Of a DNA stretch of 64,000 nucleotides, positions 2,241 through 50,300 are shown one piece after another. The notes beneath the pieces are model-generated. The model had not been told where the DNA came from. It worked only from the letters and a program-made list of their open reading frames with translations, and searched no databases. The translations under genes were made by a program, and so were the position numbers. Source of the DNA: Euglena gracilis (Eukaryota); the NCBI GenBank assembly GCA_039621445.1, contig CP154954.1, positions 11,133,229 to 11,197,228 of the forward strand, in the 5' to 3' direction. Numbering within the stretch: position 1 is the first letter of the stretch; each line of letters opens with the position of its first letter.

Positions 2241-5200
2241 TGTGGGAGGGCGGCTGGCACCAGCAAAAATTAGGAAGAGCAAAGCCTAATTCACACAAAA
2301 AATTGCCATTTCACTTTGTAGGTGGCAAAAAGCTGAATACCTTGTTCAAATCGTCTTGGAAGACTTTGTTTTGATGCCTTGCATTGGGTTTTACTGGTGG
2401 AAGTTCCGGCGGAAGGATTACAAAAAAGTGGTATTTTGAAGCGCTGAAGCCAGAAAATCCAAGTGAATTCCCAGGAAAGAGACATCTCAGAAAACTCAAG
2501 GTATTCTGGTTTGCCAAGGCATGTTGTTCAAGTATCAGTGAAAGAACCATCGAAGAAAGACATTTAGAAGTGAAATGCAGCTGGGGCTGCCAGCAGCAGG
2601 AGGAGGAATCCAAGGAGGAGGAGGAGATCAACAACCTCCAGAACCTGCAGTAAGCTGTGGTATGTACTGCTGATGGACACCCTGCTCATGCTGCAGATTG
2701 TAATTTGCAGCTGGGTGTTGGATGGTTGAAAACATTTGGAACAGATTCTGTGACAGTTTTCTGCAGTTTGTGCTTTTGTTTGGGTTGGGAGTCCGTTGCT
2801 GGAAAGTTCGGGCCACGTAGCCCCTTTTGCCACACCATTTATGGGTTGGGAGGCACTTTCCAAAAGCAAATTTGGGCCCAGCAGCCCCAGGACACACCAG
2901 GCAAAATGCGCATGTCATTTCCAGAAGTTCTGTACTGCTGTGATGGGTTGGGAGGCAAATGCTTTAGCATTTTTGGGCCCAGCAGCCCCTTATGCCACAC
3001 CACACACTGTGCAACTCAGTTTCAATTGTCCATTTGTGTTGTAAATCCTTTGGGCAGTCAATGGTACCTGATTCGGCTCGGATCAATGCACACAATTTTG
3101 GGCAGAAGAAAGTTCAACATGTCAATGTCAGAAAAAGATTTGCAGAATCCATTGTCAGAATTTCAATGTCAATTTTGGATTTTTGAAAATGTTGGTTCCT
3201 GGCCCTGCCATTTTGTGGGTGCCGCTTCAAGGGGGCCCTGCCCTGGCATTCACATTTGGCAACCCGAGCCGGCCTGGGCTTCTGGGGGGCCTTCTGGGAT
3301 AACTTGTGGTTTCTGGGGGGAAACCACAGGTTCCTCAGATGGCGTCCCAAATGGGCCCAGGAGTGGGCAAGGGGGGGTCATGGAGGGTTGTGTTGTATTG
3401 GCTGGGATTGCTGGCAGCAGCTGCTTTACGCTTTAATTGGTTTTGTTGTACATTATCTCCTCGACAGCGCCCCCCCCCACCTGAAAAAAAAAACCACCCC
3501 CAGACCAAAAATCCCCAGATCAATGCCAGCCGCCTAACTTCGTAGGTTGTCGGCATTGGCCTGGGAGGGGTGTGTGGGAGGGCGGCTGGCTACAGCAAAA
3601 ATTAGGAAGAGCAAAGCCTAATTCACACAAAAATTGCCATTTTACTTTGTAGGTGGCAATAAGCTGAATACCTTGTTCAAAACGTCTTGGAAGACTTTGT
3701 TTTGATGCCTTGCATTGGGTTTTACTGGTGGAAGTTCCGGCGGAAGGATTACAAAAAAGTGGTATTTTGAAGCGCTGAAGCCAGAAAATCCAAGTGAATT
3801 CCCAGGAAAGAGACATCTCAGAAAACTCAAGGTATTCTGGTTTGCCAAGGCATGTTGTTCAAGTATCAGTGAAAGAACCATCGAAGAAAGACACTTAGAA
3901 GTGAAATGCAGCTGGGGCTGCCAGCAGCAGGAGGAGGAATCCAAGGAGGAGGAGGAGATCAACAACCTCCAGAACCTGCAGTAAGCTGTGGTATGTACTG
4001 CTGATGGACACCCTGCTCATGCTGCAGATTGTAATTTGCAGCTGGGTGTTGGATGGTTGAAAACATTTGGAACAGATTCTGTGACAGTTTTCTGCAGTTT
4101 GTGCTTTTGTTTGGGTTGGGAGTCCGTTGCTGGAAAGTTCGGGCCACGTAGCCCCTTTTGCCACACCATTTATGGGTTGGGAGGCACTTTCCAAAAGCAA
4201 ATTTGGGCCCAGCAGCCCCAGGACACACCAGGCAAAATGCGCATGTCATTTCCAGAAGTTCTGTACTGCTGTGATGGGTTGGGAGGCAAATGCTTTAGCA
4301 TTTTTGGGCCCAGCAGCCCCTTATGCCACACCACACACTGTGCAACTCAGTTTCAATTGTCCATTTGTGTTGTAAATCCTTTGGGCAGTCAATGGTACCT
4401 GATTCGGCTCGGATCAATGCACACAATTTTGGGCAGAAGAAAGTTCAACATGTCAATGTCAGAAAAAGATTTGCAGAATCCATTGTCAGAATTTCAATGT
4501 CAATTTTGGATTTTTGAAAATGTTGGTTCCTGGCCCTGCCATTTTGTGGGTGCCGCTTCAAGGGGGCCCTGCCCTGGCATTCACATTTGGCAACCCGAGC
4601 CGGCCTGGGCTTCTGGGGGGTCTTCTGGGATAACTTGTGGTTTCTGGGGGGAAACCACAGGTTCCTCAGATGGCGTCCCAAATGGGCCCAGGAGTGGGCA
4701 AGGGGGGGTCATGGAGGGTTGTGTTGTATTGGCTGGGATTGCTGGCAGCAGCTGCTTTACGCTTTAATTGGTTTTGTTGTACATTATCTCCTCGACAGCG
4801 CCACCCCCCCCCCCACCTGAAAAAAATTACCCCCCGACTGAAAAAACCCACCCCCAAACCACCCTCCGAACCCCAACTCCCCAAGGATCAATGCCAGCCG
4901 CCTAACTTCGTAGGTTGTCGGCATTGGCCTGGGAGGGGTGTGTGGGAGGGCGGCTGGCTACAGCAAAAATTAGGAAGAGCAAAGCCTAATTCACACAAAA
5001 AAATTGCCATTTTACTTTGTAGGTGGCAATAAGCTGAATACCTTGTTCAAAACGTCTTGGAAGACTTTGTTTTGATGCCTTGCATTGGGTTTTACTGGTG
5101 GAAGTTCCGGCGGAAGGAATACAAAAAAGTGGTATTTTGAAGCGCTGAAGCCAGAAAATCCAAGTGAATTCCCAGGAAAGAGACATCTCAGAAAACTCAA

Positions 5201-5955
5201 GGTATTCTGGATTTTGGATTCTGGATTTTGGGCAGAAGAAAGTTCAACATGTCAATGTCAAAAAAAAAGATTTGCAGAATCAATTGTCAGAATTTCAATG
5301 TCAGTTTTGGATTTTGAAAATGTTGGTGCCTGGCCCTGCCATTTTGTGGGTGCCGCTTCAAGGGGGCCCTGCCCTGGCATTCACAATTGGCAACCCGAGC
5401 CAGCCTGGGCTTCTGGGGGGCCTTCTGGGATAACTTGTGGTTTCTGGGGGGAAACCACAGGTTCCTCAGATGGCGTCCCAAATGGGCCCAGGAGTGGGCA
5501 AGGGGGGGTCATGGAGGATTGTGTTGTATTGGCTGGGATTGCTGGCAGCAGCTGCTTTACGCTTTAATCGGTTTTGTTGTACATTACACAGTCGACAGCG
5601 CCCCCCCCCCTAAAAAAAAAACCACCCCCAGACCAAAATCCCCAGATCAATGCCAGCCGCCCAACTTCGTGGGTTGTCGGCATTGGCCTGGGAGGGGTGT
5701 GTGGGAGGGCGGCTGGCACCAGCAAAAATTAGGAAGAGCAAAGCCTAATTCACACAAAAAATTGCCATTTCACTTTGTAGGTGGCAAAAAGCTGAATACC
5801 TTGTTCAAATCGTCTTGGAACACTTTGTTTTGATGCCTTGCATTGGGTTTTACTGGTGGAAGTTCCGGCGGAAGGATTACAAAAAAGTGGTATTTTGAAG
5901 CGCTGAAGCCAGAAAATCCAAGTGAATTCCCAGAAAAAAGACATCTCAGAAAACT
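2241..5955 (+). mobile_element. Tandem TRIM-like non-autonomous LTR element (LTR-int-LTR-int-LTR-short int-LTR), copy in the duplicated segment
   Basis: Four ~256-bp LTRs (2241-2496, 3573-3827, 4941-5197, 5700-5955) start TGTGGG and end AAAACT. PPT GGGAGGGG precedes LTR2-4. TSD GGGC (2237-2240/5956-5959). The empty site is present in element B near 46505. Confidence 0.92.
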
Positions 5956-8444: not shown

Positions 8445-10844
8445 CCAAAACTCGCAAAATGGGTTTTTCACCTATCTGCGGTGGCTTATGGGGTATAAGA
8501 TATTATAGCCTACTGGGGAAAATGGGGCTGGCAGGTTTCCTTGCCAAGCAAACCCATCCACCCAGTTTGGGTGTGCCCAAGGCACTTGGTTTGGGTCCAT
8601 GGGCATTCCAGGAAAACCCATGGGGGGGTGTGGAAGGAGGGGGCCTCTGACCAGTCAAACCTGGGCAGGGCGCATGGCCAGTCAATCCTGACCACGCAAA
8701 AGGAAATCCTACTCTACAAAACCAACTGCCGGCGACAGCATTTGTCCGGGGGGAGAGTAGAGAGGAGTGGGTGGGTTGGCTTAGGCCAGAAAAGTGCTGT
8801 CTGGCAGCCTTAAGGCCTCAAACGGGCCGAGAACAAAACAAAGGGAAAGAAACGAGGCCGTCGGCCCTGTGCGCTGCGTGTCGCACGCCCGCGAGAGGGG
8901 AGAGGGGAGAGGGGTGTGCATGCATGCGCACGGAATCCTGCACATGGCAGCATCCCGGTGGGAACTTACTAGCGGCGAATACCGCAAAGGGTCTTCGAAG
9001 GGGTTGTTCGGGCGAATACCCAAAAAGGGTGTCAGGCGAATACCTGACGAGGGTGCTGAAAGACGCCGCATTGGCGCTCACAGACACCTCACCTGCCTTT
9101 ATCGGCTGGACGTTCGCGCACCTCACGCCAGTAGTCGTGTTGGGGGTCCCCTAATGGGTCCTCAACCAACTCCAGTTGGCGTGGGGAACGCGGCACTGAT
9201 TCACTCCGGATGGTGTTGAGCTCCGGATCGTTGGCATCAAAGGAAGGGGTCTCCCAGTCCTTGATCCAATTATCCGGCAGCTTCTCCCTGGTACGTTCAG
9301 CATGATGCTGAAGATACCGTTGGAGCTGCTCCCAGAAAATTCTGGGCAGCATCACCGGCCAGATGATGTAATTCATCCGGGGGTGATTCGCAGGCACCTG
9401 CGGGGGCATCCCCGGGGTCTGCTTGAAGTTGATGTCATACATCCACCTCGCTGTCCGAGCTCTTGCGGTATGGGGCCGTAATACAGCCGCCAACCAACCT
9501 CTGAAGTCCACCAAATCGTGTTCTTCAGGATTCCACAGTGGCAAGGCGTATTCACCATGTTGACGCTTTGAGAACAGGGTGTAATCCTGTGTGTCCCAGT
9601 CCCGATCGGCCAAGAGGTAAGGCATTCTTACCTTGGCGTGTTCCTCGACGGCTAGGCGCATTGCCCCAGCGTCGATCTGGAACTCCCGGGCCATTCCCGT
9701 GTGGCGGTAGCTTTCTATCAGTCGGAAGTCGGAGTGTTTCAGGCGGCCTTCCACCTGTTCGTACTCCTTCTTCCACTTCTCCATTGGCTCCCAGTGGTGG
9801 GGGACAATGGTGGTGACTGCTCCATCAGCAGTCTGCACGAACTTGGCCCCTATACAGTTGATGCACAAGACAGGGATATCCCTGTCGTGAGCATTCTCAC
9901 TGTAGGAGTAGTTCAAGCTGTGCTTCAAGGCGGTCAGGCACTCGCCACATACGAGCGCCACACAGTTCGGCACATATGCCCTGTGATGGAACCACGAGGA
10001 TTGCACCTGCCGCTTGCACACATGCACAAGCGGTTGGTTGTGCCGCACATGGTGGCACACGGTGCACGTCCAGGCAAAGGACGTGCCGTGCTGGAAATCC
10101 AACACGCAGTCCTCACCAAAGTACTGTGCCAGTACTCTGGGTGAGCGCCTATTCCAGAATGTCCAGGTATGTTCCGGGACATAGTGGAAAGGTTCTCCTC
10201 GGACGAAGAGGGGCTGAATCCATCGATTCAGTGACCCTTTCTGGTGCCTAATAGCAGCCAGTTTCTTCGTCCCTCTCTTCCACGGTGCCTAGTCTGGTCA
10301 GGATATCCTGAGTCCAGAGCTGGGCATCCGCAGACACAGGAAGTGAAGCAGGTTCATCCTGCTCCTCATCCGTCGATCCGGCGGAAGACTGGGCCTGTCG
10401 ACCACGAGCCTTACCTTTCGGTTTGCTCTGGCCGTACCCGGACGATGCAACGGCCGAATAGTCGTGCATTGTCGTAGGGCCTTTCGGCTGTCCGCCAGTC
10501 TGACCTCCAGCGCCACCTTTCGGTGGTGGTTTCCCATCACCGCCTTTGGCAGGGGGCTTACAGGGTGCAGCACCCAGTTTGCCTCCTTTCGGCTTCGCAC
10601 TCCCGGAATCAGGAGGCGATGCCTGCGGCTTACTCCTGGTATCAGGAGCCGATGGTGCCGGAGTAGACGCTTGCCGTCTGGGCGAAGCGGGCATGATGGC
10701 CGCTGCGTCACGCGTGACGCCCCGAGGAGTGGGCACTCGTTCCTGGGGTTGTTCAGTCTGCCGCCGCCGAGCAGGTTCATCCCGTCCGACGGGGCGTGGC
10801 ACTGTGGTCGTTACCGGAATCGGTGCTTCCACAGGTGCTGATAC

Positions 10845-12516
10845 TGTGGGCGGCGCCAGGTTTAAAATTTAAAAACCCAAAATTGAATTAGGAGGCGCCT
10901 ATCCTAATTACAAAATTTCTGTTTTTGCAGCTGCAACTGTCCTGAACTCTTTGACTCAAGGAAGGCCTGAGCGCCAGATGAAGATTTCAAGTCTTGGTTT
11001 GTGCCATGCTGAAGGAAAGTGAGTGCTGCTGGAAAGGAAAAGTTTTCAAGTTTGACCACCAGTGGGTACAAGGAGACACTCAGAAAACACAAAGAGTTCA
11101 ATTGTTGCTCAAGGCCTGGAGGCCAAAAGTCAGCCAGTTTGGCCAGAAGAAATGGACATTTCAGAAAGTGTCAAGTCAGTGATTGTCAATGATGAAAAAA
11201 TCTGGGAAGATCAATGCTGCAGAAAACTGGGCTGGAAATCTGAGCTGTATGCAGTAAAATTTCAGTATGTTGTTGAAATCATTGACAGATTGGGATTGAA
11301 GACCCCCAACATTGATGCATTCAGTTTGGAAGAAAGCAAGAGATTCAAATGCTGGTGGGGACCTGGGTCACAATTTGTGGAAGATTCCTTCACAGTGAAG
11401 TGGACACATTCCATTGTTGGATTGTTGTGGGCAAATCCCCCCTTCAGCCTCATTGCAAATGTCATCCGCAAGCTGAAGAAGGATCATGGTCATGCGGTGT
11501 TGGTTGTCCCAAAGTGGGTTACTGCCCCCTGGTGGGAAGATCTTCAAGACATTGTTGTCAGAATGCTGGAGTATCCTTGTGCCACGCCGTTGTTTTTGAG
11601 TTGGTTGGGGCAGGGTTCACAGTCCCCCCCACAAAATGGCCAGTACAAGTGGCATTTGTCTGTGGAACGATAAGTCAATGTTTCAAATTGGCAAAAGTTC
11701 CCAATTCAATTTCAAGTTCAGCAAAAAGGAGAGTGAGGAGGCAAAAGATGAAAGGAGGGTCCTCCCCACAAGTGCCCCTTAGGCTCCAGGTCGGCACAGG
11801 GGACAGCCCAAATTTCAGTGATTCAAGTGGTGAAGTCTCTTTGCAATGATTGTGTGTTCAATCTGAGCCCCCTCCTTGCAAAGTGGGCTTTGAGTTTGTG
11901 CTGGCCAGTGGCCCAGGCCCAGGGCCCAGGTCGGAGAACCGCTACAAGGGGGCCTACCCACAGGCCCTGGGACTCCCCCTGGCAGCCCCCCACTGGCCCC
12001 CTCATCCCAGGAGTGCCCTGGGGAAGGTTGGGAGGGGGACCAACCTTTCCCAGGGTGCCCCAAGGGCTCTGGGGTGGGCTGGTGGCCCTGTGGCCCCCCT
12101 ACTTGTGCTGGACATTTTTGGACTAAATCCCTGTCAGCTGTATTATATCCCTGACTCAGCGTTCAAAAATTTAAAAAAAACAAATTTCAGCCGCCCCCCC
12201 CAAAAAAGGCCAATTTTGGCGCCGCAAAAAATTGCCGAAGGCAGTGGGCACGAAGTGTCCAGAGAGGGGTGTGTGGGCGGCGCCAGGTTTAAAATTTAAA
12301 AACCCAAAATTGAATTGGGAGGCGCCTATCCTAATTACAAAATTTCTGTTTTTGCAGCTGAAACTGTCCTGAACTCTTTGACTCAAGGAAGGCCTGAGCG
12401 CCAGATGAAGATTTCAAGTCTTGGATTGTGCTATGCTGAAGGAAAGTGGGTGCTGCTGGAAAGGAAAAGTTTTCAAGTTTGACCCCCAGTGGGTACAAGG
12501 AGACACTCAGAAAACA
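10845..12516 (+). mobile_element. Miniature LTR element (1672 bp) carrying only an adenine MTase ORF
   Basis: 245-bp LTRs 10845-11089 and 12272-12516 (TG...CA); PPT AGAGAGGGG 12261-12269; TSD ATAC 10841-10844/12517-12520; empty site in B near 43310. Confidence 0.94.
11152..11849 (+). CDS. DNA N6-adenine methyltransferase (Dam/DIRS-type), with one apparent frameshift in a T run at ~11596
   Basis: NIDAFS...DSFTVKW...LLWANPPFSLIANVIRKLKKDHGHAVLVVPKWVTAPWW with intact NPPF at 11434-11445. The C-terminus FELVGAGFTVPP continues in another frame to 11849. Confidence 0.82.
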
Positions 12517-15500
12517 ATACACCCGGAAACTCTCCCATTGTCCGTGGGACGGCAGGGATCCTGCGGGGTGTCGGTGGTCGTGGGGGTATTTCTTCCACTT
12601 CCATTTTGACATCCGGTCGAGGAGGTTGATCCTCCACAACCGCTGGCGCAGGTGCTACGGCAGGTTGATCCTCCGTTGTAGCCGTTGCGACAGATGTCTC
12701 TGTCGGTTGGGGTTCATCCCCTGAAGATGGTTGCGCTGCTGCCGGAGGTGGGGTGCCGGGACACCGATATCCGGCGTCTCCACAACCTCAGTGGCAGAGC
12801 TTGATACTACGCCTCCACCTCGTGGCGTCAGTGCAGAAGCCACGGCAGTAATGCCAGTGACGACGGCGCCGAGCACACGGCCTCCTAATGAGGTGCGTGC
12901 TGTGGGGCTGGCAGGTTCTTCGAGGGTATCCTCGATGACCATACCAGTCACCTCAGCTTCAGGCTCAGCCTCCGGGAGAGGCGTTGCAGCCACAGGTATA
13001 TCCCCTGTGGGTGCTTCGTCTGGCCGAGGCTGTGCCGGGGCAGGCAGAGAAGCGTAGAGGATAGCCTCCACGTTCTCGCCTTCCTCCTGAGGGAGTTCCT
13101 CGTCTCCACCTGCCGGTGGACAGACGGGAGCCGCCGCCGCGGGGGCCGGGGAGACTGATCGTTCCCCTGCCGCCCGTGGGACAGAGACGAAGGATACAGC
13201 CGTCCCTGTCGGAGACAGCGGCGCTGCCTCCAGGATAGTGACGGAGGTGCTGCGGTCGCGATCCTCTCGCCGCGTAATCGCGGTGGTGGAAGCGACTGAA
13301 GCCTCACGTCTCCTTCGCGCCAGAGGTTCATCCTCCGGGGCGATGAAGGCGCGCAGATCCTCGGGCGAACGCGGATCGTCGGGGTGCCATCGGCATCCCT
13401 GAGCATCCGCCAGCCTGTAAAAGGCCAGCGTACTGCTGCGGGGCTGTTGGGCCAGGGTGGCGGCCATGATGGCTGCACCCAGGCGTTGGCAGGCCTTTTT
13501 GGGCCCAGAACACCGCGGTAACGCGTGTTTTCCCAGACGTTGAAAACGCCCTCCTCGAACTCCTGAACGCATGCCAGAATCGGCATACGCTGTTCGAGGA
13601 TGGCCTCCGGGTGACACATCAGCGGGAGGAATACCTCCCGGTCGAGGGTACCGCCAAACTGTCGCCGCAAATGTTCCTCCATGCTGATATCAGCCAGGTG
13701 CCAGTTGGGGCGCAGGTGGCCGAGAATCCGACGACGAGGACCCTCGATGGCGTCACCGTAATTCGGTGGCAGGCTTTCCATACCAGGCCTATCGTCCTGG
13801 GGGTCACGGAGATGTATATACACCTCCATGACATGGGTGGTCCAGGCTCGCCACCAGAACTGCTGCAGCATAAAAATACGCTGCTTTTGGACGCGGCGAC
13901 TTTTGCCCTGGACATCCGGGGCGTCGCGGCACACATGCATATAAGCATGCGGCGTCCCATCTGCAGGCCCGGGTTTTCCCGAGGCGGTGGAGGACTTCCG
14001 CGCACGCCTAATCCCCAGAAGTCGACAGGAAATTACTGCCGGCAGTACTTACAGCAGAGGTCTTACCTCTGCGGGTAAGCCAGGGAAACGCGCTTAACGC
14101 GGAAGGTGGAGTCGTAATGGCTCACCAGCCACACCTGGAGGTTGTTGCACCACAACACCTCGATCAGGCGTTCGATGTCGGGGTGTAGTGGGTAGAATTC
14201 CTACTGCACGCCGAGGGGTCCGACTGTATGAATACAGTCGTAGATTGCCTTCAGCCTTCGGGCCAACACACGCTGGTCCCGAAATCTCAACTGGTGCAGG
14301 TAACTGCGACCAGTGGAGTCGCTGAAGAGACCCCAGTTCTGGCAGGGGTATCCCAGCCAAAACCAGAGCTCCCAGAAACCTGGCTGGGTTTCCAGCAAGG
14401 GTCTGCGACCTTCACCTTCGAAGGCGTACAGATCTATCCCGTAATGGAATAGTCTGACTCGGTTCTCGCTGTGGCGTAATACCACATCGATGACTGCTTG
14501 TGGAGGGGTGACGGGGCGGTTTCCTGCAATATGGTAACCATGCTGCATTCGCCAGCCTTCGTCCTCCAGCTCCTCCTTGAACCTGAGCATATGCTCAAAG
14601 TCCGAGAGGACTTCTGCTGGTTCCTCTTCCTCCTCACGTGCTGTTCCCTTACCTTTACCCTCACCCTTCCCTTTGCCGGCCACGTCTTTGCCTTCTCCCT
14701 TGCCTTTGCCCTCAGCCCTGCCTGTGTCCTTTCCCGTCTGGGGAATACCAGAGGGTCGGGCGCTCGGTGCCGCCGGAGTCGGTTCGGTTCCTTCCCATTC
14801 CATCTCTGGGGAGGGACCTGGCCGACCCGCTGCACGTCGCGGTGACGGCGTGGCTGGGGGTTGGCTAGGAGTCTGGCGTGGGCTTGGCTTCGGCGCAGGT
14901 GGTCGCGGCTCCTTCCATACCGGAGGGATCGGCGGTGGTATTGCGGCAACAGGACGGCTCATCGCCACCTGTGCCTCTGCCGGTGGTTTTCCAGCCGGGG
15001 TATCCTGGCTGGCTTCCACCTGCATCGCCACACCGCCTTCCGCGTCCCGTGGGCTGGGTCGCCTGGGCTGTGGGGTAAGGTTCTCCGTAGTCCTGTCGCG
15101 CTGCAGGGTGGCAGGTAATACTGCCACACCTGCCGGGGGCTAGCCGGGTAATACCGGGGTTGCCACCCGCAGCTGCGGCTGGTACGGATGGCATGGGGTG
15201 TATCCACGGCCTGAAGGGCAGCCAGAGAGGAGTAATACCTCGACCGGTGCTCTTCAGACACGAATACTGGCTCCTGCAGGAAGTGCCGAGCAAGCTCATC
15301 CTGCTCGGTTTCCGGAGGTGCCATGTGATAGTAGGGAGTCTCCTGCCGACGGATGATATCCGCAGTCTGGACAGGAGCTGCACTGGGCGGTCGGGCTGCC
15401 ACACGGTGGGGAGGTTCATCCTCCACCACTATGGGCTCCGCCTGCCGCCGTGGCTCAACGCCAGGGACAGGGGCGACCGGTGATGCCTGTGGAATCCAGT

Positions 15501-15659: not shown

Positions 15660-18600
15660 TGTGGGAGGGCGGCTGGCACCAGCAAAAATTAGGAAGAGCA
15701 AAGCCTAATTCACACAAAAAATTGCCATTTCACTTTGTAGGTGGCAAAAAGCTGAATACCTTGTTCAAATCGTCTTGGAAGACTTTGTTTTGATGCCTTG
15801 CATTGGGTTTTACTGGTGGAAGTTCCGGCGGAAGGATTACAAAAAAGTGGTATTTTGAAGCGCTGAAGCCAGAAAATCCAAGTGAATTCCCAGGAAAGAG
15901 ACATCTCAGAAAACTCAAGGTATTCTGGTTTGCCAAGGCATGTTGTTCAAGTATCAGTGAAAGAACCATCGAAGAAAGACATTTAGAAGTGAAATGCAGC
16001 TGGGGCTGCCAGCAGCAGGAGGAGGAATCCAAGGAGGAGGAGGAGGAGATCAACAACCTCCAGAACCTGCAGTAAGCTGTGGTATGTACTGCTGATGGAC
16101 ACCCTGCTCATGCTGCAGATTGTAATTTGCAGCTGGGTGTTGGATGGTTGAAAACATTTGGAACAGATTCTGTGACAGTTTTCTGCAGTTTGTGCTTTTG
16201 TTTGGGTTGGGAGTCCGTTGCTGGAAAGTTCGGGCCACGTAGCCCCTTTTGCCACACCATTTATGGGTTGGGAGGCACTTTCCAAAAGCAAATTTGGGCC
16301 CAGCAGCCCCAGGACACACCAGGCAAAATGCGCATGTCATTTCCAGAAGTTCTGTACTGCTGTGATGGGTTGGGAGGCAAATGCTTTAGCATTTTTGGGC
16401 CCAGCAGCCCCTTATGCCACACCACACACTGTGCAACTCAGTTTCAATTGTCCATTTGTGTTGTAAATCCTTTGGGCAGTCAATGGTACCTGATTCGGCT
16501 CGGATCAATGCACACAATTTTGGGCAGAAGAAAGTTCAACATGTCAATGTCAGAAAAAGATTTGCAGAATCCATTGTCAGAATTTCAATGTCAATTTTGG
16601 ATTTTTGAAAATGTTGGTTCCTGGCCCTGCCATTTTGTGGGTGCCGCTTCAAGGGGGCCCTGCCCTGGCATTCACATTTGGCAACCCGAGCCGGCCTGGG
16701 CTTCTGGGGGGCCTTCTGGGATAACTTGTGGTTTCTGGGGGGAAACCACAGGTTCCTCAGATGGCGTCCCAAATGGGCCCAGGAGTGGGCAAGGGGGGGT
16801 CATGGAGGGTTGTGTTGTATTGGCTGGGATTGCTGGCAGCAGCTGCTTTACGCTTTAATTGGTTTTGTTGTACATTATCTCCTCGACAGCGCCCCCCCCA
16901 CCTGAAAAAAAAAAAACCACCCCCAGACCAAAAATCCCCAGATCAATGCCAGCCGCCTAACTTCGTAGGTTGTCGGCATTGGCCTGGGAGGGGTGTGTGG
17001 GAGGGCGGCTGGCTACAGCAAAAATTAGGAAGAGCAAAGCCTAATTCACACAAAAAATTGCCATTTTACTTTGTAGGTGGCAATAAGCTGAATACCTTGT
17101 TCAAAACGTCTTGGAAGACTTTGTTTTGATGCCTTGCATTGGGTTTTACTGGTGGAAGTTCCGGCGGAAGGATTACAAAAAAGTGGTATTTTGAAGCGCT
17201 GAAGCCAGAAAATCCAAGTGAATTCCCAGGAAAGAGACATCTCAGAAAACTCAAGGTATTCTGGTTTGCCAAGGCATGTTGTTCAAGTATCAGTGAAAGA
17301 ACCATCGAAGAAAGACACTTAGAAGTGAAATGCAGCTGGGGCTGCCAGCAGCAGGAGGAGGAATCCAAGGAGGAGGAGGAGATCAACAACCTCCAGAACC
17401 TGCAGTAAGCTGTGGTATGTACTGCTGATGGACACCCTGCTCATGCTGCAGATTGTAATTTGCAGCTGGGTGTTGGATGGTTGAAAACATTTGGAACAGA
17501 TTCTGTGACAGTTTTCTGCAGTTTGTGCTTTTGTTTGGGTTGGGAGTCCGTTGCTGGAAAGTTCGGGCCACGTAGCCCCTTTTGCCACACCATTTATGGG
17601 TTGGGAGGCACTTTCCAAAAGCAAATTTGGGCCCAGCAGCCCCAGGACACACCAGGCAAAATGCGCATGTCATTTCCAGAAGTTCTGTACTGCTGTGATG
17701 GGTTGGGAGGCAAATGCTTTAGCATTTTTGGGCCCAGCAGCCCCTTATGCCACACCACACACTGTGCAACTCAGTTTCAATTGTCCATTTGTGTTGTAAA
17801 TCCTTTGGGCAGTCAATGGTACCTGATTCGGCTCGGATCAATGCACACAATTTTGGGCAGAAGAAAGTTCAACATGTCAATGTCAGAAAAAGATTTGCAG
17901 AATCCATTGTCAGAATTTCAATGTCAATTTTGGATTTTTGAAAATGTTGGTTCCTGGCCCTGCCATTTTGTGGGTGCCGCTTCAAGGGGGCCCTGCCCTG
18001 GCATTCACATTTGGCAACCCGAGCCGGCCTGGGCTTCTGGGGGGTCTTCTGGGATAACTTGTGGTTTCTGGGGGGAAACCACAGGTTCCTCAGATGGCGT
18101 CCCAAATGGGCCCAGGAGTGGGCAAGGGGGGGTCATGGAGGGTTGTGTTGTATTGGCTGGGATTGCTGGCAGCAGCTGCTTTACGCTTTAATTGGTTTTG
18201 TTGTACATTATCTCCTCGACAGCGCCCCCCCCCCACCTGAAAAAAAAAAACCACCCCCAGACCAAAAATCCCCAGATCAATGCCAGCCGCCTAACTTCGT
18301 AGGTTGTCGGCATTGGCCTGGGAGGGGTGTGTGGGAGGGCGGCTGGCTACAGCAAAAATTAGGAAGAGCAAAGCCTAATTCACACAAAAAATTGCCATTT
18401 TACTTTGTAGGTGGCAATAAGCTGAATACCTTGTTCAAAACGTCTTGGAAGACTTTGTTTTGATGCCTTGCATTGGGTTTTACTGGTGGAAGTTCCGGCG
18501 GAAGGAATACAAAAAAGTGGTATTTTGAAGCGCTGAAGCCAGAAAATCCAAGTGAATTCCCAGGAAAGAGACATCTCAGAAAACTCAAGGTATTCTGGAT

Positions 18601-23100: not shown

Positions 23101-25273
23101 ATCCAGTACACCATGAAATTCGCGAGTAATTCGCGAACAATAGTCAGCAGACTTGGGGAGTTGGTCCGCACTCTCAATGACCGCAGAAATCTGCGTTGAG
23201 GGTGTGGCATCCCCCTTGGTACCAAGGTATCTTGGCACACGCACATCGGATATTCCGAATGCGTCAAAGAAACAAACGCCAAAAATTATTTCTTTAACCG
23301 GTGGTAATAATATACTGGACGTCCTCAATCCCGTTGCGCAAGGTAACTTTATATCGCCCGCTACTACCTAACCTCTCCAAAATTTCGCATGGGCCGAGCC
23401 AAAGAGGATCTAGCTTGGAGGATTGCATGCGGGTGCGGTTATTCCGTACCCACACGTGGTCACCTGGACTATACACAGGCACAAAAATCCTCGAATAGTG
23501 GTACATCAGCGGGTAAATCCCACCAGTGGAAACACACATGGGATAGTTGGTGAAACCAATCCGCATTCGGATTGACGGGTATGAGGAGAGCTCCTCGCGC
23601 TTCATCGCGGAGGATTTTCTCCACCACATCCGGGAAAAAGTTCGGGAGAGGGTGCATCCAGAGCACCGTATCACCCCAAAATTTCAGAAATGCGTTGGAA
23701 TGTCGCGACCAATATCGTGACAAGCGCGCATGCGCTTTTGATGAAAACACATCAATTTCTAATGACAAATCGAAGGAATCAGCCACAACCGCGATTTTGG
23801 AGAACGATCCCTCCAAAATTCGGTATTGACCAAAATTTAATGCGTTCCATACGCGCATCGCGTATGTGTCGACCTGGTTCGCGGGGTGAAGAGCAGTAAC
23901 GCAATTCAGGGATCCGCAAACATAAGTCAAGGGTGTTTTATCCACTCTCCCTAGGGGCATTCCTCAATGTTGATGGGTTGGATGGGTGTATACCCAGTCC
24001 ATATCATGCGAGATGGAGGTGGGGGAGGTGTGTGACACGGATTTCGCTGTCCCAAACAACAAGGCAATACCTCGTTGTTGGAGCACTTGATGTACGGTCG
24101 CGCATTGCGAACCGCAACCAAGTGTATGGTTGCGCGAAATCGGGATTATTGTTGGTGTTTGGACTAGGCATCCACAATCGAAATCTGGCTGGGCGGAAAT
24201 TCTCCCTCAGTGCACACATTGGAAGGGAGTGTCGGAGTAGTGGTCCTGGTCGCGCACGTTGGTCTGGTGGGGGTGTGTGTAAAAGTCGGGATGCGCTGTT
24301 GTAGCTGCTGGGGGGTGTACAGATGTATCTGAAAGCGATACATCTGGTGGAAAACGGGGTATTGGTGCAGCTGGGCGACTACTCGACACCGTACGTACTT
24401 CAGGCCTTTGGGCTTTCGTCTTGTAACCCAGTGGAACGAAAGGGGTACCGCTACTCGCTTGCCCTGCCTCATGGGGAACGGAAGTTGGTGTGTCAATGGG
24501 CAGGGGGTGAACTTTCTCGGTACACCCGGTGTGGAAAACGTTGGTTGGTGTGGTTGGTAACGGGGTAAATTTTTTTGAAATCGGTGTGGAAATATTGGTG
24601 GTCGTCGCGGTTGACGCCACGGGTGCTGAAGGTTTGGGGGGCAATGAAGAGAATGGTGATGTGCGCCAACCGTGGGAGTGGCAATCCACTACCAGCCGGT
24701 GCTGACGTAAAAAGGGGTATCCAAGAATTACGCCAGAACCATGGATTCCGGATTCGTATCCCCAGGTATCCGGAAAATTTTGCGTTTGGGGGGGGTGTGA
24801 GTGGTGCTTGGGGATGAGGGGTAGGACAATGTCCAAAAAGCATCCCAAGTCACCGCCGCACATGGGGGTGTTGTCAGCCGTCGTAATTTTGATCAGCTTC
24901 TTGGCTTTCACCAAGAGGGGGGTTGGTATCAACCCGAACCGAAAAAGTAGTGCAATGCGACAACCAGTATCAATGAGAATTTTGACTTTTGCACTACAAT
25001 TTTGGAATTTGATTTCCGCTTGGACCAAAAGTTCAATGGGGGGTAAGCAAAGTGAAGGGTCTGGCGAAAATACGTTTTCTTCCAGCTTTCCCATGATCCC
25101 TTTCCTACTTTGCACAACATTCCGAGCGGAAAGCTGGAGTGGGGGGTGGGGGACCCGAAAATTTTCCGGGTACCGACCAGAAAGGCAGATGGGCAGGGGG
25201 GGCGGGGTTGATCAGGTCCTACCTCCATCTGTTCATCAGCCCAGAGGTCCGTTCCCTCGGACCTCGGGCTCCC
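20164..25273 (-). pseudogene. pol: Pol of element A: aspartic protease, MTase-like domain, RT, RNase H, integrase, chromodomain
   Basis: LIDTGC and ILGYPF (protease); LDYRYLN, FDLEDGFHQ, YIDD (RT); EVDSSDYAVGGVL, REKE, LTDH, ADPLSR (RNase H); HHCC and DDE (integrase); chromodomain; several stops and frameshifts. Confidence 0.93.
23240..23835 (-). other. DNA N6-adenine methyltransferase-like domain inside Pol of A
   Basis: EIDVFSS..HARLSRYWS...NAF...W..TVLWMHPLP...VVEKI.....GALLIP.....WF follows the DIRS-type Dam MTase motif order, with NPPF replaced by HPLP. Confidence 0.75.
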
Positions 25274-28200
25274 CTACTCCAGGTCCGAACCGGCCGAATA
25301 GCCGCTATGGGCCTTTTAGAGGTGTAGAAGGATTTCAACGTGCGCACCGCCATGCGGGCATCGTCGAAATCGGTATCCGTGGTCTCATCCCCCTCCCTGC
25401 CCGAAGCCGGGGTGTCATCCTCCAAACAAGATATCTTGAAACCGACTTTATGGCGGTTGGAGGAGTGACCCTTGTCACCGCGATTCATACCGCGATGACG
25501 TTGGCCAGGGCGTGGAGAACGAGAACGCAGACATTTGGATGAGTGGTGATCACTCGATCCACAAAGCGAACACCGAGATTTGTGTCGCGATTCTGGGTAA
25601 CGGGGGGATCGGTTTCCCGATTTCCCGTCAACCGTCGCGGTGACCGGATATCCCGTCGACGATGACCGGTGTATCGAGGTTTTCCCGACGAGGATCGCGA
25701 AGAAGATGATCCGCTTCGCAAAACACGATCGCGATGTCTCGCGATGAGAATCACACTTCTTGGACAGGGCACCGGGTGACCTACCCCGAGGGGTACCGTG
25801 TTTCCGCTGATCGCAGAACAGGATCCGGGGGCTAATACCACCGGAACGGGCACCCGATGACCGTGAATTGCCCAATTGGCGTGAAAATGCGGAGGAACCC
25901 GAACCCCGTGATGTGGTCGAGCCTCGCGGACTCTGAATACGCTTACACACTTCAGGATTAGGACATTCCCGAGACATATGTCCCGCTTTGTTGCAGAAAA
26001 AGCACACTTTATCCGTGGCTTGGTCCGAAGAACGCGGATATCGCGTTTTCGATCCCGTGTTTGGTGAGGTGGGTGAATCCGGTGATTTTTGCAATGCGTT
26101 CACCGAACCAGCCGGTAATCCAGCGGTTGGGTGTGCGTTATACGCGGATTGAATCTGACCAAGAAGCTGTGATAGCTTCAACTGCTTGGAAACATAATTC
26201 CAGCGTTGGTCAAGAGTCATTGGATGACTCGCCAACTCCTCACGGTGGATATCCTTGATGAGACTAGGCGTGAAATGCATGAGAACAGCATCAAACTGTT
26301 CGTGCACTTGCTTTTCACTGAGTTCATCCACTTCAGCGGCAAGTCCTAACCATTTGGCATACCAAAGGTCAATGGACTTCCACTTGCGGTCGGGTGGGGC
26401 GCATTGCCGCCACTTGGTCTCTAGGGTAATCCTAGCGACCAAACTTGAACTGGTGGAAGCGTATTGCTCCACCAGGTCATCAAGGGAAACGCGGTAGCGA
26501 ATCACGAGTTGTCGCGCGCGTTCCTTCTCATCCCTAGGGAGGCAATCGATGAATTCCATCTTGATCACCTCCGGGTTTGTGTCCTGGGTTGGCCCTTTTA
26601 ATGCCCAGTAGTACTGCAAGTCCCGGAAAAACTGTCTCCATGTGGTTGGATCACCGTCCCATTGGGGTTTCACCTTATTCGCGATTGCGATGGTGCCCTT
26701 GAAGTCTTTCTGAGAAACCCAATGACCCTCGGTGGTATTCCGTGGTTTTGGGCCTGGGTACGCTCGAGCACCAAGCGTATCCTTTCCGGAATCTTGGCGG
26801 AATTCGCGAAATTTCTGGTGAAGGTGAATCCTGGTACCAGAAATCCGGTCGCAAACCCTGTTGGGCACCCGTAATACGGGGACTCTCCGGTGTGGGGGTA
26901 TGTCGCGCATGCAACATGTGACCCACTCCCGGTGTACGGGTTTGGCTCATTCCACGCACAAGCATGGAATGATGGATTTCTTGGTGGGACTTGGCGGAAT
27001 CGCCGTGTTTTCCGAAAATTCGGTTCCCGTAATGGGAAATTCATCCGAAAACTGGGTTTGGGTTGTGGGCAAGGCCAATGGTGGCACAATTCGCGGAATC
27101 GCGGATTGTGACACTCGGGACACGGGTTGTGGTCGTGCATGTGCACCTAGAGTCGGGTTATGAAAACACGACTCTGAAACATTTGGCGCGTCTTCGGCAA
27201 TGCATACTGCCGAATTGCGGTGTGAAACCCGCTGTTGGTTGGACACATTATCCAAACCCACAGACAAGTCATGCACAGTTTGCTCCAAGTGCTCAACGAG
27301 TTGGAGTTGACCGCAAATACGGTCAACTTCATCCTCCAAAGCGCGAATACGCTTGCGGTAACGGGAAAAGTCATCCGAGTGCGGAAACCTTTCGGAAATT
27401 TCGGTAACATCTTGGACAAGGTTCCCGTGAGAATTATCCAATAATTGGAGTTGTCCCATTAATGCTTTTACAGCATTTGAGAGAATCTGCAGTTACCTTG
27501 GTTGGTGTGGTGGTGGGTGCAACCGGTGCAGCGTTATCCGACAACGCGGTTGTGGTACCCACGGGAAAATTTGCGGATTGCAGCTTATCCAAAAACGCGG
27601 AAATTCGCTCATCCAACCTGGTAATTTCACTTTGCGTGGATCGGGCATTCCGATTAACCGATTATTCAAGCAGTAATAGGCTGTTGCAGAAACTTGCAAT
27701 GTTTCCTGATTGTCAGTGAGCATTTTGTCATAAAATGCCTTGAAATCGGGGTTCTCGGTAATCCAGGAATTGGAACCTGCAGGTAGAGACTGCATTTCTT
27801 TTTTTTTAGCAGACACCGATGCATACCGGGTCTGGAGTTTTCCAGTAGCAGTTTGAATACCGCTAATGTCCGGAACTCGGTGGGAAAGTGCGCAATAGCT
27901 TTGTTGCAAACCCCTAATGGCCGAGTTAATCCCGCCAATGTCGGATTGCAACTGCAACTGCAGGGAATCCTGCCGTTGTGCTACTTCTGCGACTTTCGCG
28001 CTCAGATTGGCTAATCCAACCCGATTTGCGTCACAATAGCAGGTTTTCTGATCCAAGCGGGAAAGTCGCTCCTCCAACTGCCGCACATACGTGTGGGGAG
28101 CAAAATTCTCGTTGGATTGTGACTGGAATTGCCGAAATTTTTCTGTTTCTTCATCGCACAACTGCATAATGCGGTGTTGCGATTCATGGAAAGTTGCGGA

Positions 28201-29251
28201 CAATGTGGTGAAATGGTCCATAGACACAAATCCACCACTGTTTGATGTTGCAGACAAGGAATGTCGTGCATGCAACTGTTGTTGCAAATGCACGAGATTG
28301 TTGCAAATGAACAGGACTCCATTTGTCCGGATAACTGTTGTAGTGAGTCACGCAAGTGCAGAAACTTGGAATCATTCCGCGTTTCCGCTTCATGCATACA
28401 TTCACTAATTTGCCGGAAGTTTTGCGGGAGTTGTTGGCATATTTTGTCAAAGGTTTCCCGAAAGCTTGCAAGGTCAATACCCGCACTTTCGAAATTCCTC
28501 TGGCAATATTTGCCAACTTCCTGCAAGTAATTCCAGCAGTATTCCAGCTTGGTGAAGACAAGTTTTTTTCCATGTCGTCATCAAACTGGAGCACTTTGTT
28601 GAGTGCGGTTGCACAATCTGCAACGCATTGTTGCACGTGGTTGAACTGCCTCACAAGGGGGTGATCCCCTGGAAGCTGAGCAACGATATCCTGCACGTCC
28701 TCAGCAGTGAGGAGCTCACCAGTGCCCTTCCCATAGCCATCCATGTGTTGGGACGTACCGGAGAATTCCGGTACCACTAGGCGAGTTTCCGGTTGCCAAG
28801 GTAGTGCGGGATAGCACCCAAGATCGGGTGGTGGTGGCAAAGCTCTGTAAGGGCTTGCCGGTGGAAGAACGGGTGGTGGTTGAAAGAAACACGGGCTTTC
28901 TAGCCCACCATCACCCGAGAAGCCCGGTGGCTGAATCACCACGGGTCTCTCCGGTGTGTGCAGCTGCACCATTGCCGCAGACAGAGGCGAATACCCGCTT
29001 TGTGACAAGGTGAGTGCGGAAGAGGCCGCATTAGCCTCTGAAGCCAATGATGTGGGGGGCTCATTGCCGACCACTGTCAATGATGACAAATGTTGCAATC
29101 TGGACAATTGAACCAATTGTGCCTCATCGGCGTGGGAACTGGAAGCAGTTTCACATAAAAGCTTCCAATCCCCATTTTCCTGGTCAATGTCTTGCAATTG
29201 TGCCTGTAATAAGGCATAGTTGAATTGATGGTTGGGGCCTGTTCTTTGCAT
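25274..29251 (-). pseudogene. gag: Gag of element A (long coiled-coil N-terminus, capsid-like region, two CCHC knuckles), frameshifted
   Basis: PQWDGDPTTWRQFFRD capsid-type motif; CFFCNKAGHMSREC and CSLCGSSDHHSSKC; split across ORFs 28184-29305, 27493-28293, 26947-27459, 25219-26910. Confidence 0.85.
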
Positions 29252-47350: not shown

Positions 47351-50300
47351 CTATTTTGTTGCGCAGAAAGTGTTTATGTTATTGCGCTTGTTCCACAGCT
47401 TCCAATCCTGCTGGATATATCCAACAAAACTGGATGCTGGCTCCCAAGTGTCCTCCTCTGGCCCATACCCTTTCCAGCGAACTTTCCAGTAGTGCACACC
47501 CCTGTCGAGCTTGTGGTCTATTATCCTATCGACCACAAAGTCGTCCGTTTCAGGTAATCTGGAACGGGGCTTGAAATACAGGCAGGGGATAGCTTTTCCG
47601 TCTGGGGGGCTTAGGTACGGTTTGAAGTCGTCCATATGTGTTGAAGTTTTGTAAAAACGATTTCCGTCTGTTGGAATGAGTTTCTGTGATACGTGATTGG
47701 ACTGCAGAGCGGAGTGATTCCACTTCTGCAAACCACGTTTCACAGCTGACGCTACTTCGGGCGGGTCTCTCCGAGGGGATATCCCCTATGGCCGGAGGGT
47801 CTCGTCCGAAAACAATTTTGTACGGTGAGTGTGGTAATACCAACCCTGGCAAGGTATTGATGTAAAATAAACACCAATGAAGAACGGATAACCAATTCTT
47901 ACCCGAGTCAGCCAGTGAAAGGCGAAGCATATTGACAACGGATTTCACGGCTGCCTCGGCTCTACCATTGCCTTTCGGGCGGTATATAATGGAAAAATGC
48001 TGCTCAATGCCGAGTAAACCGCACAAAGTTGTGAAAAATCGCGACGAGATCAAGTGATCTTGATCACTCACGATTTCGTGCGGTAAACCCATTAAGCAGA
48101 CAATTTTTCCAGGAATATGGATGCCAAAATTTGGGCTGTCAACCCTGCTTTCCGGCATGGAATGGCTACAATGTACCCACTCAGCCGACAGACGACAACA
48201 AAAACGTAATTGTAAATTTTGTCATCTGATCCTTTGCAAGGTTCAAGTTCGATAAAATCCATGCAGAGGGACGTAAAAATGTCTGGTGGTACGGGGAAAA
48301 CGTCCATCGTACCAGGGGGGGTACCTCTGCGCGGTTTTACAGCTTGACAAATTTGGCACCGTTGCGAAATTCGCAAACAGCGCGAATATAATTCTTTTTT
48401 ACTCAGGGTTGTGCATTATCTGCGACCCACTAGTGAAAGAAGTTTGGGGGCCCCAGGGTGACCATGGTTGTGATACCTCAAAATCACATCATCAACCAGG
48501 TCTTGGGGTATACAATATTTATAACCAGAAACATTCCGGAAAATAAGCCGCAATGGTGATAGAGAGTAATTCTCTATGGATTCACCATTACTACGTCTAT
48601 TCACAATGGTACTATATATAGGGTCACGCGAATAACCCATTCGCGGAAAAATAGGGGGGTATGAGTTTCCGTACGCGTAATGCGACGGGGTGCGGCAGTG
48701 CGTCCACGCCGGCGCCTTCCACGCAATGGTGAAATGGCGATGCTGCGATATACACGGGAAACGGGTAGTGAATCGAGCATATTGTCCGCAGTGTCGGATC
48801 GACGTGCGAACTGGTCAGCCTCATGGCTGCCATGAAAAGTCGCATCACCCTCATCCGGGTTCCAAGGATAATTCCAGGGGGCTCGGCTGAGAGGATCCGC
48901 AACGTTTTGCGTGTGACCTGGGGTATAGATAACCACCAGGTGAAACTGGCTCAAGAACTCATGCCAGCGGCATCTTCTGCCAACTGATGACATGGCCTTG
49001 TTTAGGTCCTCGGTATACCAGTGTTGAAGGCTCTCATGATCCGTCAACACGCGTATCTGGACCAAGCTGCTGGCTATCCAGCTGCGGAATGTCTGGAGAA
49101 TAAGCACAATGGCATATGTCTCCTTTTCGCGAATGCTCCATTTAACCTGTCCTTTCCCGTTGTCGCCCTGCAGCTTCCTGCTGAAGACAGCCACAGGTCG
49201 GAGTTCATTCGCCGCATTATGCGGGCTAAGAACCCCGCCAACTGCGTAATCGCTGCTGTCGACTTCCAGGACATACGGTTTATATGGTTCCGCGATATCG
49301 AGAACCACGTTCTCGAGCAGCAAGTTCTTGATTTTATTCAAGGCCTCGCGCATTTGGTCATCCCAAATGACTTTTGCGTTATCGGGTGTCCGATTTTTGA
49401 GTTGTCGGGTTAGGGGTATCGCGATTTTCGCGAAATCTTTCATATAAACCGCGTAATATTGGGCTAATCCCAAAAATCCCTTTAAATGCGTTAAGGTCTT
49501 AATGACCACAGGAGTCCATTTCTTAATGGCATCCATCTTACTGGGTGCGGCTTTACGCTGCCCGTTGCTCAGGATGTGTCCGCAAAACTTAATAATTTTG
49601 CGAAACAGGTGCATTTTGGAACCCTTCACAAAAAGCACATGCTTTTGGAACGCGGATAACAGCGCCCGCACATCGCGATAATGCGGTTCGAGGATATCCT
49701 CGCCCGATTTCGCGGATGGTGGTTGGGATCCCACCAGTACATCATCGATGTACACCAGAGCAAACGGTAAAACGCGCAAAACCCACTCTATCATGCGTTG
49801 AAACATGGCTGGGCCATTCTTATCACCCATGGGGAGTACCATCCATTGGTACACACCCTTGGATGTCACAAATGCCGTGTACGGTTGCGAATCAGGATGC
49901 AAATGCATCTGATGGAAACCGTCTTCCAGATCAAAGATTGACCACAACCGGTTATCCGATTGTCTGGTGATCAAATCCTCGATCAGCGGTAACGGGGAGG
50001 GGTCATCCCTCGTTTGGAAGTTCAGGTACCGGTAATCCAGCACTAGTCTCCACTTCTTCTGACCAGACTGGTCAGCAGGTTTGGGCACCACAAAATCCTG
50101 TGATGTCCATTCGCTCTTGGAAGGGATAACCCACTTCCGCTGGATGAGCTTCTCAATCATCTCTTTCAGAGCTTGCTCGCGTTCACCTGAACAACGGAAG
50201 AATTTCCGGTGCATGGGTTTAGCGCCATCCTTGAGCTCGATTTTGCAAACACCGAACGGACCGCGAATCGCGGGGTCGATGTCGCAGGCGTATACTGGGT

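Follow-up and report, generated by a model that had tools for sequence, protein, structure and literature searches.

Two small LTR retroelements of Euglena gracilis probably prime reverse transcription with a piece of their own spliced-leader-capped RNA

Introduction

Retroelements with long terminal repeats (LTRs) are normally primed by tRNAs. A stretch of 64,000 nucleotides (nt) from the Euglena gracilis genome (assembly GCA_039621445.1, contig CP154954.1, positions 11,133,229 to 11,197,228 of the forward strand; this whole stretch is called the window below, and positions are counted from its first letter) holds two small LTR elements without such a tRNA site, which raises the question of what primes them. 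One is the MT (methyltransferase) mini element at 10845-12516; the other, TRIM, is a tandem array whose first LTR lies at 2241-2496. A sequence-only reading of the window had proposed that both elements prime themselves in the manner of Tf1, with the primer-binding site (PBS) of each pairing with a segment of its own LTR that would be the first ~11 nt of the transcript. Tf1/sushi elements self-prime, and the Tcn1 clade and the Ty1/copia TAR lineage in plants are predicted to, as described in PMC6317226; further sources on self-priming elements, including Tf1/Tf2 of Schizosaccharomyces pombe, are PMC5006619 and PMC2864245.

Here we report that both small elements probably do prime their own reverse transcription, with a 5′ fragment of the element's RNA that a predicted cut would release after this RNA has received a spliced leader (SL). 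The evidence that carries this reading is a set of miscopied genomic copies, here called fossils, in which the primer was copied together with the leader in front of it. Numbered loci (L) are the genomic loci that were read individually, and all window features lie on the forward (+) strand unless stated otherwise.

Results

Primer-binding sites that match the elements' own LTRs

The sequence that follows the 5′ LTR of the MT element (LTR 10845-11089) is CAAAGAGTTCA at 11090-11100, and this putative PBS is the exact reverse complement of the segment TGAACTCTTTG inside the LTR (10943-10953), the last G of which would be the 3′-OH end of the primer. Similarly, CAAGGTATTC at 2497-2506 behind the first TRIM LTR is the exact reverse complement of GAATACCTTG at 2335-2344, and the same TRIM PBS is found at all six LTR-to-internal junctions in the window (also 3828-3837, 5198-5207, 15916-15925, 17252-17261, and 18586-18595). 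Both pairings, checked by eye and by script, are as the sequence-only reading had described them, and so is the lack of a TGG at either site. Each PBS begins at the very first base past the LTR (the LTRs end at 11089 and 2496), and the primer segments sit at LTR positions 99 (MT) and 95 (TRIM), in the same columns of an alignment of the two LTR families, which are homologous. Within that alignment the pairing differs at three positions, and each of these changes is compensated in the PBS.

Chance does not account for these matches: for each family, only 0-2 of 2000 shuffled LTRs contained the reverse complement of the first 10 post-LTR nt, and control 11-mers starting 11 or 22 nt further on matched the LTR over 4-7 nt only. 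Across the genome, a 22-mer spanning the MT LTR end and PBS has 182 exact occurrences (control 0), and the corresponding TRIM 21-mer has 131 (control 0). Five further mini-LTR families with the same layout were found elsewhere in the genome (A1, A2, B/C, D, and F), each with a TGTGGG-like LTR start, a purine tract, and a PBS starting CAAA or CAAG that perfectly complements an LTR segment ending TTTG or CTTG. A candidate for another family, L069, was dropped, as no LTR pair was present within the 5 kb examined. Direct sequence reading gave a target duplication of 4 bp in MT, TRIM, A1, D, and F.

The proposed covariation was borne out in the six families compared (MT, TRIM, A1, A2, B, and D; family C is a near-copy of B and was excluded from the table). 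Seven of the 10 helix columns are variable, every between-family difference is two-sided (the three differences between MT and TRIM being double changes), and none of 60 cells is non-Watson-Crick. Pairing was perfect in all 83 copies read (MT 58, TRIM 6, A1 1, A2 8, B 9, D 1), these being best-scoring or exact-pattern matches. Perfect covariation of primer and PBS would follow from self-priming because each round of replication copies the primer into the PBS. Judged from these sequences, a self-complementary priming site appears to be a property of the superfamily.

A trans-spliced RNA 5′ end in front of the primer

To place the primer segment within the RNA, raw RNA reads of two runs were aligned to 10700-12650 at 95% likeness, giving 320 and 422 reads; run X23 gave 4 aligned reads and X24 gave 0. 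Nine reads of run X20 and 16 of run X21 carry unaligned 5′ letters, (T)ATTTTTTTTC, that end at 10930. Together with the G at 10930 these letters equal TATTTTTTTTCG, the conserved 3′ end of the Euglena gracilis spliced leader as given in PMC4778363. Since the leader joins there, the exon starts at 10931, directly after tgtttttgcAG and 12 nt upstream of the primer segment. The MT LTR thus contains a trans-splice acceptor, a pyrimidine tract followed by AG (10920-10930), and then the 12 first trans-spliced nt, CTGCAACTGTCC (10931-10942). In TRIM, the acceptor AG lies at 2320-2321 and is followed by 13 exon nt, GTGGCAAAAAGCT (acceptor and exon start together 2320-2334), ahead of the primer segment; trans-splicing rests on the reads for MT and on the genomic fossils described below for TRIM. 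In each of the seven families read, the primer segment is preceded by a pyrimidine tract and AG at a distance of 10-13 nt.

These positions do not agree with the transcript starts of ~10943 and ~2335 that had been predicted. Nor is the primer the first ~11 nt of the transcript: in MT it follows the 26-nt leader and 12 exon nt and is therefore nt 39-49 of the mature RNA.

The reads also bear on which MT copies are expressed. In all or most of the reads, fixed differences from the window copy occur within 10958-12117 (for example at 10958-10959, 11036, 11180, 11197, and 11468); at 11593, 2 nt are missing (23 of 27 and 24 of 25 reads). Because of these differences the expressed copies belong to another subfamily, with the end of the open reading frame (ORF) in a different frame. 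Eight reads depart from the MT sequence at 11758 into GC-rich sequence. This loose end was considered as part of a longer MT element and rejected, its 30 nt being an unrelated repeat with 414 exact genomic copies. Copies of this repeat often occur in pairs ~13-14 kb apart, and the loci read (L116-L125) have no MT similarity. The repeat probably represents a further large element that sits inside or next to an MT copy that is expressed.

Genomic fossils of the annealed RNA

A 17-mer joining the SL end to the MT exon start, taken from the reads, occurs 10 times in the genome (control 2). Seven of these 10 loci contain the full 26-nt SL followed by CTGCAACTGTCC and TGAACTCTTTG, and then the reverse complement of the LTR 3′ end. 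Read in the sense of the element, they run from LTR to PBS, to the complement of the 12 exon nt, and to the complement of the SL. The SL is not encoded by the LTR, so the block behind the PBS can only be a DNA copy of a trans-spliced RNA 5′ end that lay on the PBS, and the molecule that was annealed and copied there is the element's own trans-spliced 5′ end. Plus-strand strong-stop synthesis that continued through the whole primer would produce this layout.

The junctions past the fossil block vary by locus. In L101 and L103 the block is followed by extra bases and then by AAACA, PBS, and leader; in L109 and L107 there was recombination inside the homology between SL and U5; L102 has an internal deletion; and L106 has unrelated DNA behind the block. 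Because the junctions differ between loci, the MT fossils stem from independent events. The L103 fossil is flanked by a 4-bp target duplication. L106 consists of a solo LTR, the PBS, and a primer copy that terminates at the first base of the SL, as expected for plus-strand strong-stop DNA that reaches the end of the primer.

Fossils were also found for TRIM, where the SL end followed by GTGGCAAAAAGCT and GAATACCTTG occurs at 5 places in 3 distinct contexts (control 1). A broader search with a 16-mer of the SL end plus GTGGCA retrieved 50 genomic matches (control 15). In 12 of 30 loci read, the SL is followed by exon and primer sequence from one of the mini families (TRIM, B, A2, another family in L135, and an iMet-like one in L137), and one additional locus (L140) has a decayed leader. 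In family F (L070), the PBS and leader region behind the LTR forms a continuous complement of exon and SL. In L155, the SL, exon, and primer end at the primer's last G. Taken together, a fragment of the element's own RNA 5′ end was annealed and copied at the PBS at 7 MT and 5 TRIM genomic places. The part of the earlier proposal that concerned priming by the element's own RNA is thus strongly supported, the fossils holding the copied primer, and the part that put the primer at the first nt of the transcript is not supported.

Two loci, L144 and L145, run on in sense past the primer segment. The similarity of L144 to the TRIM LTR covers 129 nt only. L145 (G000:C8:27544830-27547845) is a whole family-B element with the SL as its left end instead of U3 and a complete right LTR, and from it we conclude that full-length SL-capped RNA is reverse-transcribed; the locus looks like a product that was copied from uncut SL-capped RNA to its cap and for which the second jump was never made.

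The iMet-like locus L137 (G000:C4:61744041-61747056) contains the SL, GTGGCAAT, and 13 nt that are the complement of an iMet-type PBS, followed by the reverse complement of an LTR end. A 21-mer from this locus has only one occurrence in the genome, so that there is no LTR with this exon and the search for an LTR carrying a tRNA mimic of its own was negative. Its origin could be either a tRNA mimic or a template switch.

Predicted RNA folds and the U5 end

We generated predicted RNA secondary structures with and without the leader. When only the exon was folded, 5 of 7 families had a minimum-energy structure that contains the primer-PBS helix (pair probability 0.96-1.0). A second short helix between the exon start and bases past the PBS was predicted from the exon-only fold in MT (10933-10937 with 11104-11108), TRIM (2323-2329 with 2510-2516), A2, and D.

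The LTRs of both window elements also end in a block that complements nt 3-15 of the SL: AGACACTCAGAAA at 11074-11086 in MT, as compared with the 26-nt SL from the fossil loci and L070, and the same block with one extra T at 2480-2493 in TRIM. The LTR-end motif CTCAGAAAAC, which had been proposed as a tag for finding autonomous members of the family, turned out to be this complement of SL nt 3-15. The partner search run on the LTR-end pattern CTCAGAAAACNCAANH returned 267 matches (control 47), and the 30 loci read were unrelated repeats with no self-complementary site. The SL-complementary U5 end may work as a switch or serve to rescue plus-strand transfer, or it may be left over from an ancient copy of the primer that became part of U5.

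Discussion

A proposed course of priming

The following sequence of events may account for these observations. The RNA would fold back on itself, or a second RNA would pair with it, placing the primer segment on the PBS. An RNase H-type cut past the last G of the segment (10953 in MT, 2344 in TRIM, as placed from the LTR boundary) would leave a 3′-OH, which the reverse transcriptase of a helper element would extend, copying U5 and R backwards from 11089 or 2496. The leader would leave with the cut-off piece and for this reason would not enter the strong-stop DNA. Normal plus-strand synthesis would copy just the annealed 10-11 nt of the primer, and the usual strand transfers would follow; plus-strand synthesis running on to the capped end would leave the fossils, with their 49-nt RNA 5′ end, leader included.

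Points that weigh against this reading

Several points count against the reading that both elements prime themselves in this way. The further families (A1, A2, B, C, D, and F) were chosen because they already showed the self-complementary feature, so that their perfect pairing is partly a matter of ascertainment; the fossils of the further families are independent of this. The exon-only fold lacks the primer helix in A1 and B. With the leader in place, the predicted fold of MT RNA favours a helix between SL nt 3-15 and the U5 end (11074-11086) at the expense of the primer helix; the pair probability of the primer helix with the SL added is 0.0 in MT, 0.35 in TRIM, 0.48 in A2, and 1.0 in D. Read depth is nil over U3 (10845-10930) and over 12152-12547 at 95% likeness, and the fixed differences between the expressed copies and the window copy may have cost some reads; for both reasons the aligned reads do not demonstrate a full-length genomic MT RNA. 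We would like to note that the cut that would make the primer 3′ end is a predicted one, and that the fossils identify the RNA that was annealed and copied, and not its covalent joining to minus-strand DNA or its action in cis as opposed to in trans. Unlike in Tf1, the primer segment lies inside the RNA and not at its 5′ end. Lastly, no helper with the same priming site was found by the LTR-end pattern, by fused MT proteins, or by a signature scan.

Other explanations

The same observations might be explained by a host RNA, whether a tRNA fragment or another small RNA, that acts as the primer, the match to the LTR being incidental. Priming by tRNAs is the usual mode for LTR elements, the large elements of the window have tRNA-iMet-type PBSs, and an ARAGORN scan of the window found no tRNA gene there. 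Against this, there is no TGG at the PBS; six families have six PBSs, each matched by its own LTR, so that six host primers ending TTTG or CTTG would be needed; and the fossil sequence past the PBS is the element's own exon start and SL, not a tRNA. We regard a host primer as close to refuted. Alternatively, the complementary segments could form a structural RNA unrelated to priming, such as the stem of a euglenid nonconventional intron that removes R-U5. Six reads (3 + 3) do run from the SL and CTGCAAC, which ends at 10937, straight into the sequence from 11106 on; they leave out 10938-11105, and with it primer, R-U5, and PBS, the joint has a 2-nt repeat, and this joined form has no genomic copy, although the six reads could as likely be due to hairpin skipping by the reverse transcriptase in library preparation. 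The model for such introns, as given in PMC3935182, has a conserved CA at +4,+5 that pairs with TG at -7,-6, and this pair is absent for all three possible borders. In addition, the 3′ arm starts exactly at the LTR boundary in every family, as predicted for a primer site and not for an intron, and the fossils require that the PBS was used as a start of copying. An intron stem therefore seems to us very improbable.

A closer relative of the proposed mechanism is that priming by the element's own RNA is real but occurs in trans, by a separate short SL-capped RNA or by the 5′ end of a second packaged RNA, or, in a variant, that the plus-strand strong-stop DNA was already complete when it annealed to a free SL-capped RNA. 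Cis and trans are indistinguishable from sequence alone, and the block in L155 stops at the primer's last G. The locus L107 (G000:C30:24352096-24355112) is a chimeric fossil that joins the MT primer sequence to the SL-capped 5′ end of another, large element (family X, described below), which means that RNAs or cDNAs from two elements came together in the same reaction. On the other side, the exon-only folds favour an intramolecular panhandle with the second short helix beside the PBS in MT, TRIM, A2, and D, and Tf1 priming is reportedly intramolecular. Priming in trans strikes us as unlikely, and we continue to favour a primer cut from the element's own RNA.

Candidate helpers

Neither mini element has a pol gene, so there is no reverse transcriptase, RNase H, or integrase to place in the Tf1/sushi clade, and a helper would have to supply these enzymes. 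The large elements of the window do have tRNA-iMet-type PBSs, as had been stated, and they contain no built-in primer mimic; the nested large element has a 5-bp target duplication as against 4 bp in the mini elements. Efforts to find an autonomous relative gave negative results: among 230 candidates for fused long forms of the MT protein, none matched at E <= 1e-5 (a weak test); the 30 kb upstream of the window contain a further copy of the MT mini element but lack a close autonomous parent; and a scan of ~160 loci and the window for the signature of acceptor, primer, and PBS found no element with gag-pol. A tandem array of tRNA-type PBSs belonging to an abundant gypsy family was also considered and set aside, no SL-derived sequence being present in the array.

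The large element in the chimeric fossil L107 belongs to family X (L159/L160, L163/L164), which is ~14 kb long and has a weak C5 cytosine-methylase match, RVT_1, RNase H, and a tRNA-iMet PBS. A 22-mer from its exon start has 439 exact genomic matches. Its LTR is 640 nt long with an SL acceptor at position 93, and this acceptor and the SL-capped 5′ end in L107 indicate that tRNA-primed elements here are trans-spliced too. Family X has the same purine-tract end and the same first 11 LTR nt as the MT mini element. On the chimeric fossil and these sequence likenesses, family X (of the EpiLTR type) may weakly be put forward as a candidate helper, which is a lead and not a finding.

Anatomy of the two elements

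The MT mini element is, by sequence reading, a complete LTR element with TG..CA LTR ends. Its two LTRs, of 245 nt each (10845-11089, TGTGGG...AAAACA, and 12272-12516), are direct repeats that are 98% alike, and it is flanked by a 4-bp target duplication, ATAC (10841-10844 and 12517-12520). A polypurine tract, AGAGAGGGG (12261-12269), lies ahead of the 3′ LTR. The sole ORF (11152-11673) encodes a Dam-like, adenine-methyltransferase-like protein with an NPPF motif. This protein has no Pfam match at E <= 0.01, and it is 28% identical (E = 1e-9) to a domain ahead of the reverse transcriptase in a large element at 48601-50925.

TRIM is a tandem array of alternating LTRs and internal regions that is present twice in the window through a segmental duplication, 1 to ~6100 having been copied at 13423 to ~19500; further copies of its LTR end at 3827, 5197, 5955, 15915, 17251, 18585, and 19343. 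An open frame of 260 codons in TRIM lacks both a start and a Pfam match, and its composition is unlike that of a protein. A short LTR pair, a target duplication, a PBS, and a polypurine tract without gag-pol are what is found in non-autonomous LTR elements. Both mini families form head-to-tail arrays of LTR and internal region; an MT array on contig 15 (G000:C15:3300540-3320825) has at least 15 units at ~1430-bp spacing.

Further observations concern 51737-59511 and 24717-28934. In the region of the large elements, there is an inverted duplication about 55288 (51737-55287 against 59511-55288, ~94-95% identical). On the minus strand, an LTR at 40828-40515 is followed by TGTTTTGTATC and not by an iMet PBS, while its partner LTR at 29853-29538 has an iMet PBS.

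Comparison with known systems

Similar to Tf1/sushi elements as described in the sources cited above, MT and TRIM have no tRNA-type PBS, a post-LTR site of 10-12 nt that pairs with the transcript of their own LTR, and a primer made by a cut in the RNA, a cut that is predicted here. Unlike in Tf1, the primer follows the 26-nt trans-spliced leader and 12-13 exon nt and is not the first 11 nt, and the RNA 5′ end arises by trans-splicing and is not shown there as a promoter start. The carriers also differ, being non-autonomous euglenid elements, and the identity of the primer comes from genomic fossils and not from biochemistry. To our knowledge, biochemical proof of self-priming in LTR elements exists for Tf1 only.

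With TRIMs and other non-autonomous LTR elements (PMC6934838, PMC3532108, and PMC4558846), the two elements share short LTRs, target duplication, PBS, polypurine tract, lack of gag-pol, tandem arrays, and dependence on a helper. The PBS of such elements is complementary to a tRNA according to the account in PMC4558846, whereas here it is self-complementary, and MT carries an adenine-methyltransferase-like ORF besides. Cer1 of Caenorhabditis elegans, an LTR element of a second host that trans-splices, resembles MT in having an SL acceptor and some RNAs with a leader. In the data presented in PMC3315495, only its 2.4-kb spliced mRNA was found with SL1 (with and without it), its 8-kb full-length RNA was not trans-spliced at that site, and its PBS matches tRNA-Pro; here, the SL-capped RNA enters reverse transcription and supplies the primer. 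The DAM-LTR and EpiLTR elements that a preprint describes for Euglena gracilis (bioRxiv 10.64898/2026.05.21.726589) are also close: they carry a Dam-like domain akin to the MT ORF, and family X has the layout of DNMT and reverse transcriptase. The main text of that preprint makes no mention of PBS, primer binding, "self-prim", tRNA, or non-autonomous elements.

In the literature searched, no paper joined the spliced leader and self-priming for LTR elements, and, of five papers with both terms, the four that were listed were on other subjects by title and abstract. Self-priming is already known; what is new here is the leader-capped and internally placed primer, the host lineage, the non-autonomous carriers, and the fossil record.

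Implications

A wider picture is possible, and we offer it tentatively, with more doubt than confidence: a superfamily of LTR elements in a trans-splicing host may have turned the spliced leader into a tool. The SL acceptor would replace a defined start; the capped piece of SL, 12 nt, and 11 nt would be cut off as the primer; and the leader would be kept out of the strong-stop DNA. The SL-complementary U5 end of MT and TRIM could switch the primer helix and could rescue plus-strand transfer in cases where the primer is copied in full (the recombination in L109 and L107 falls in this homology). The enzymes would come from tRNA-primed elements of the EpiLTR type, with one reverse transcriptase serving both priming modes.

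The fossils form a natural archive of miscopied products that shows, without an experiment, which RNA sat on the primer site. For annotation, this means that LTR elements of the Euglena gracilis genome without a tRNA-type PBS are not defective, and that leader-complement blocks beside LTRs mark by-products of reverse transcription. Self-priming would be extended to Euglenozoa and to non-autonomous elements. These elements also raise a question that is addressed in no paper of the literature searched, namely how a retroelement responds when the 5′ end of its RNA is exchanged by the host for a spliced leader, and the answer that they suggest is to cut the leader-capped end off and use it as the primer.

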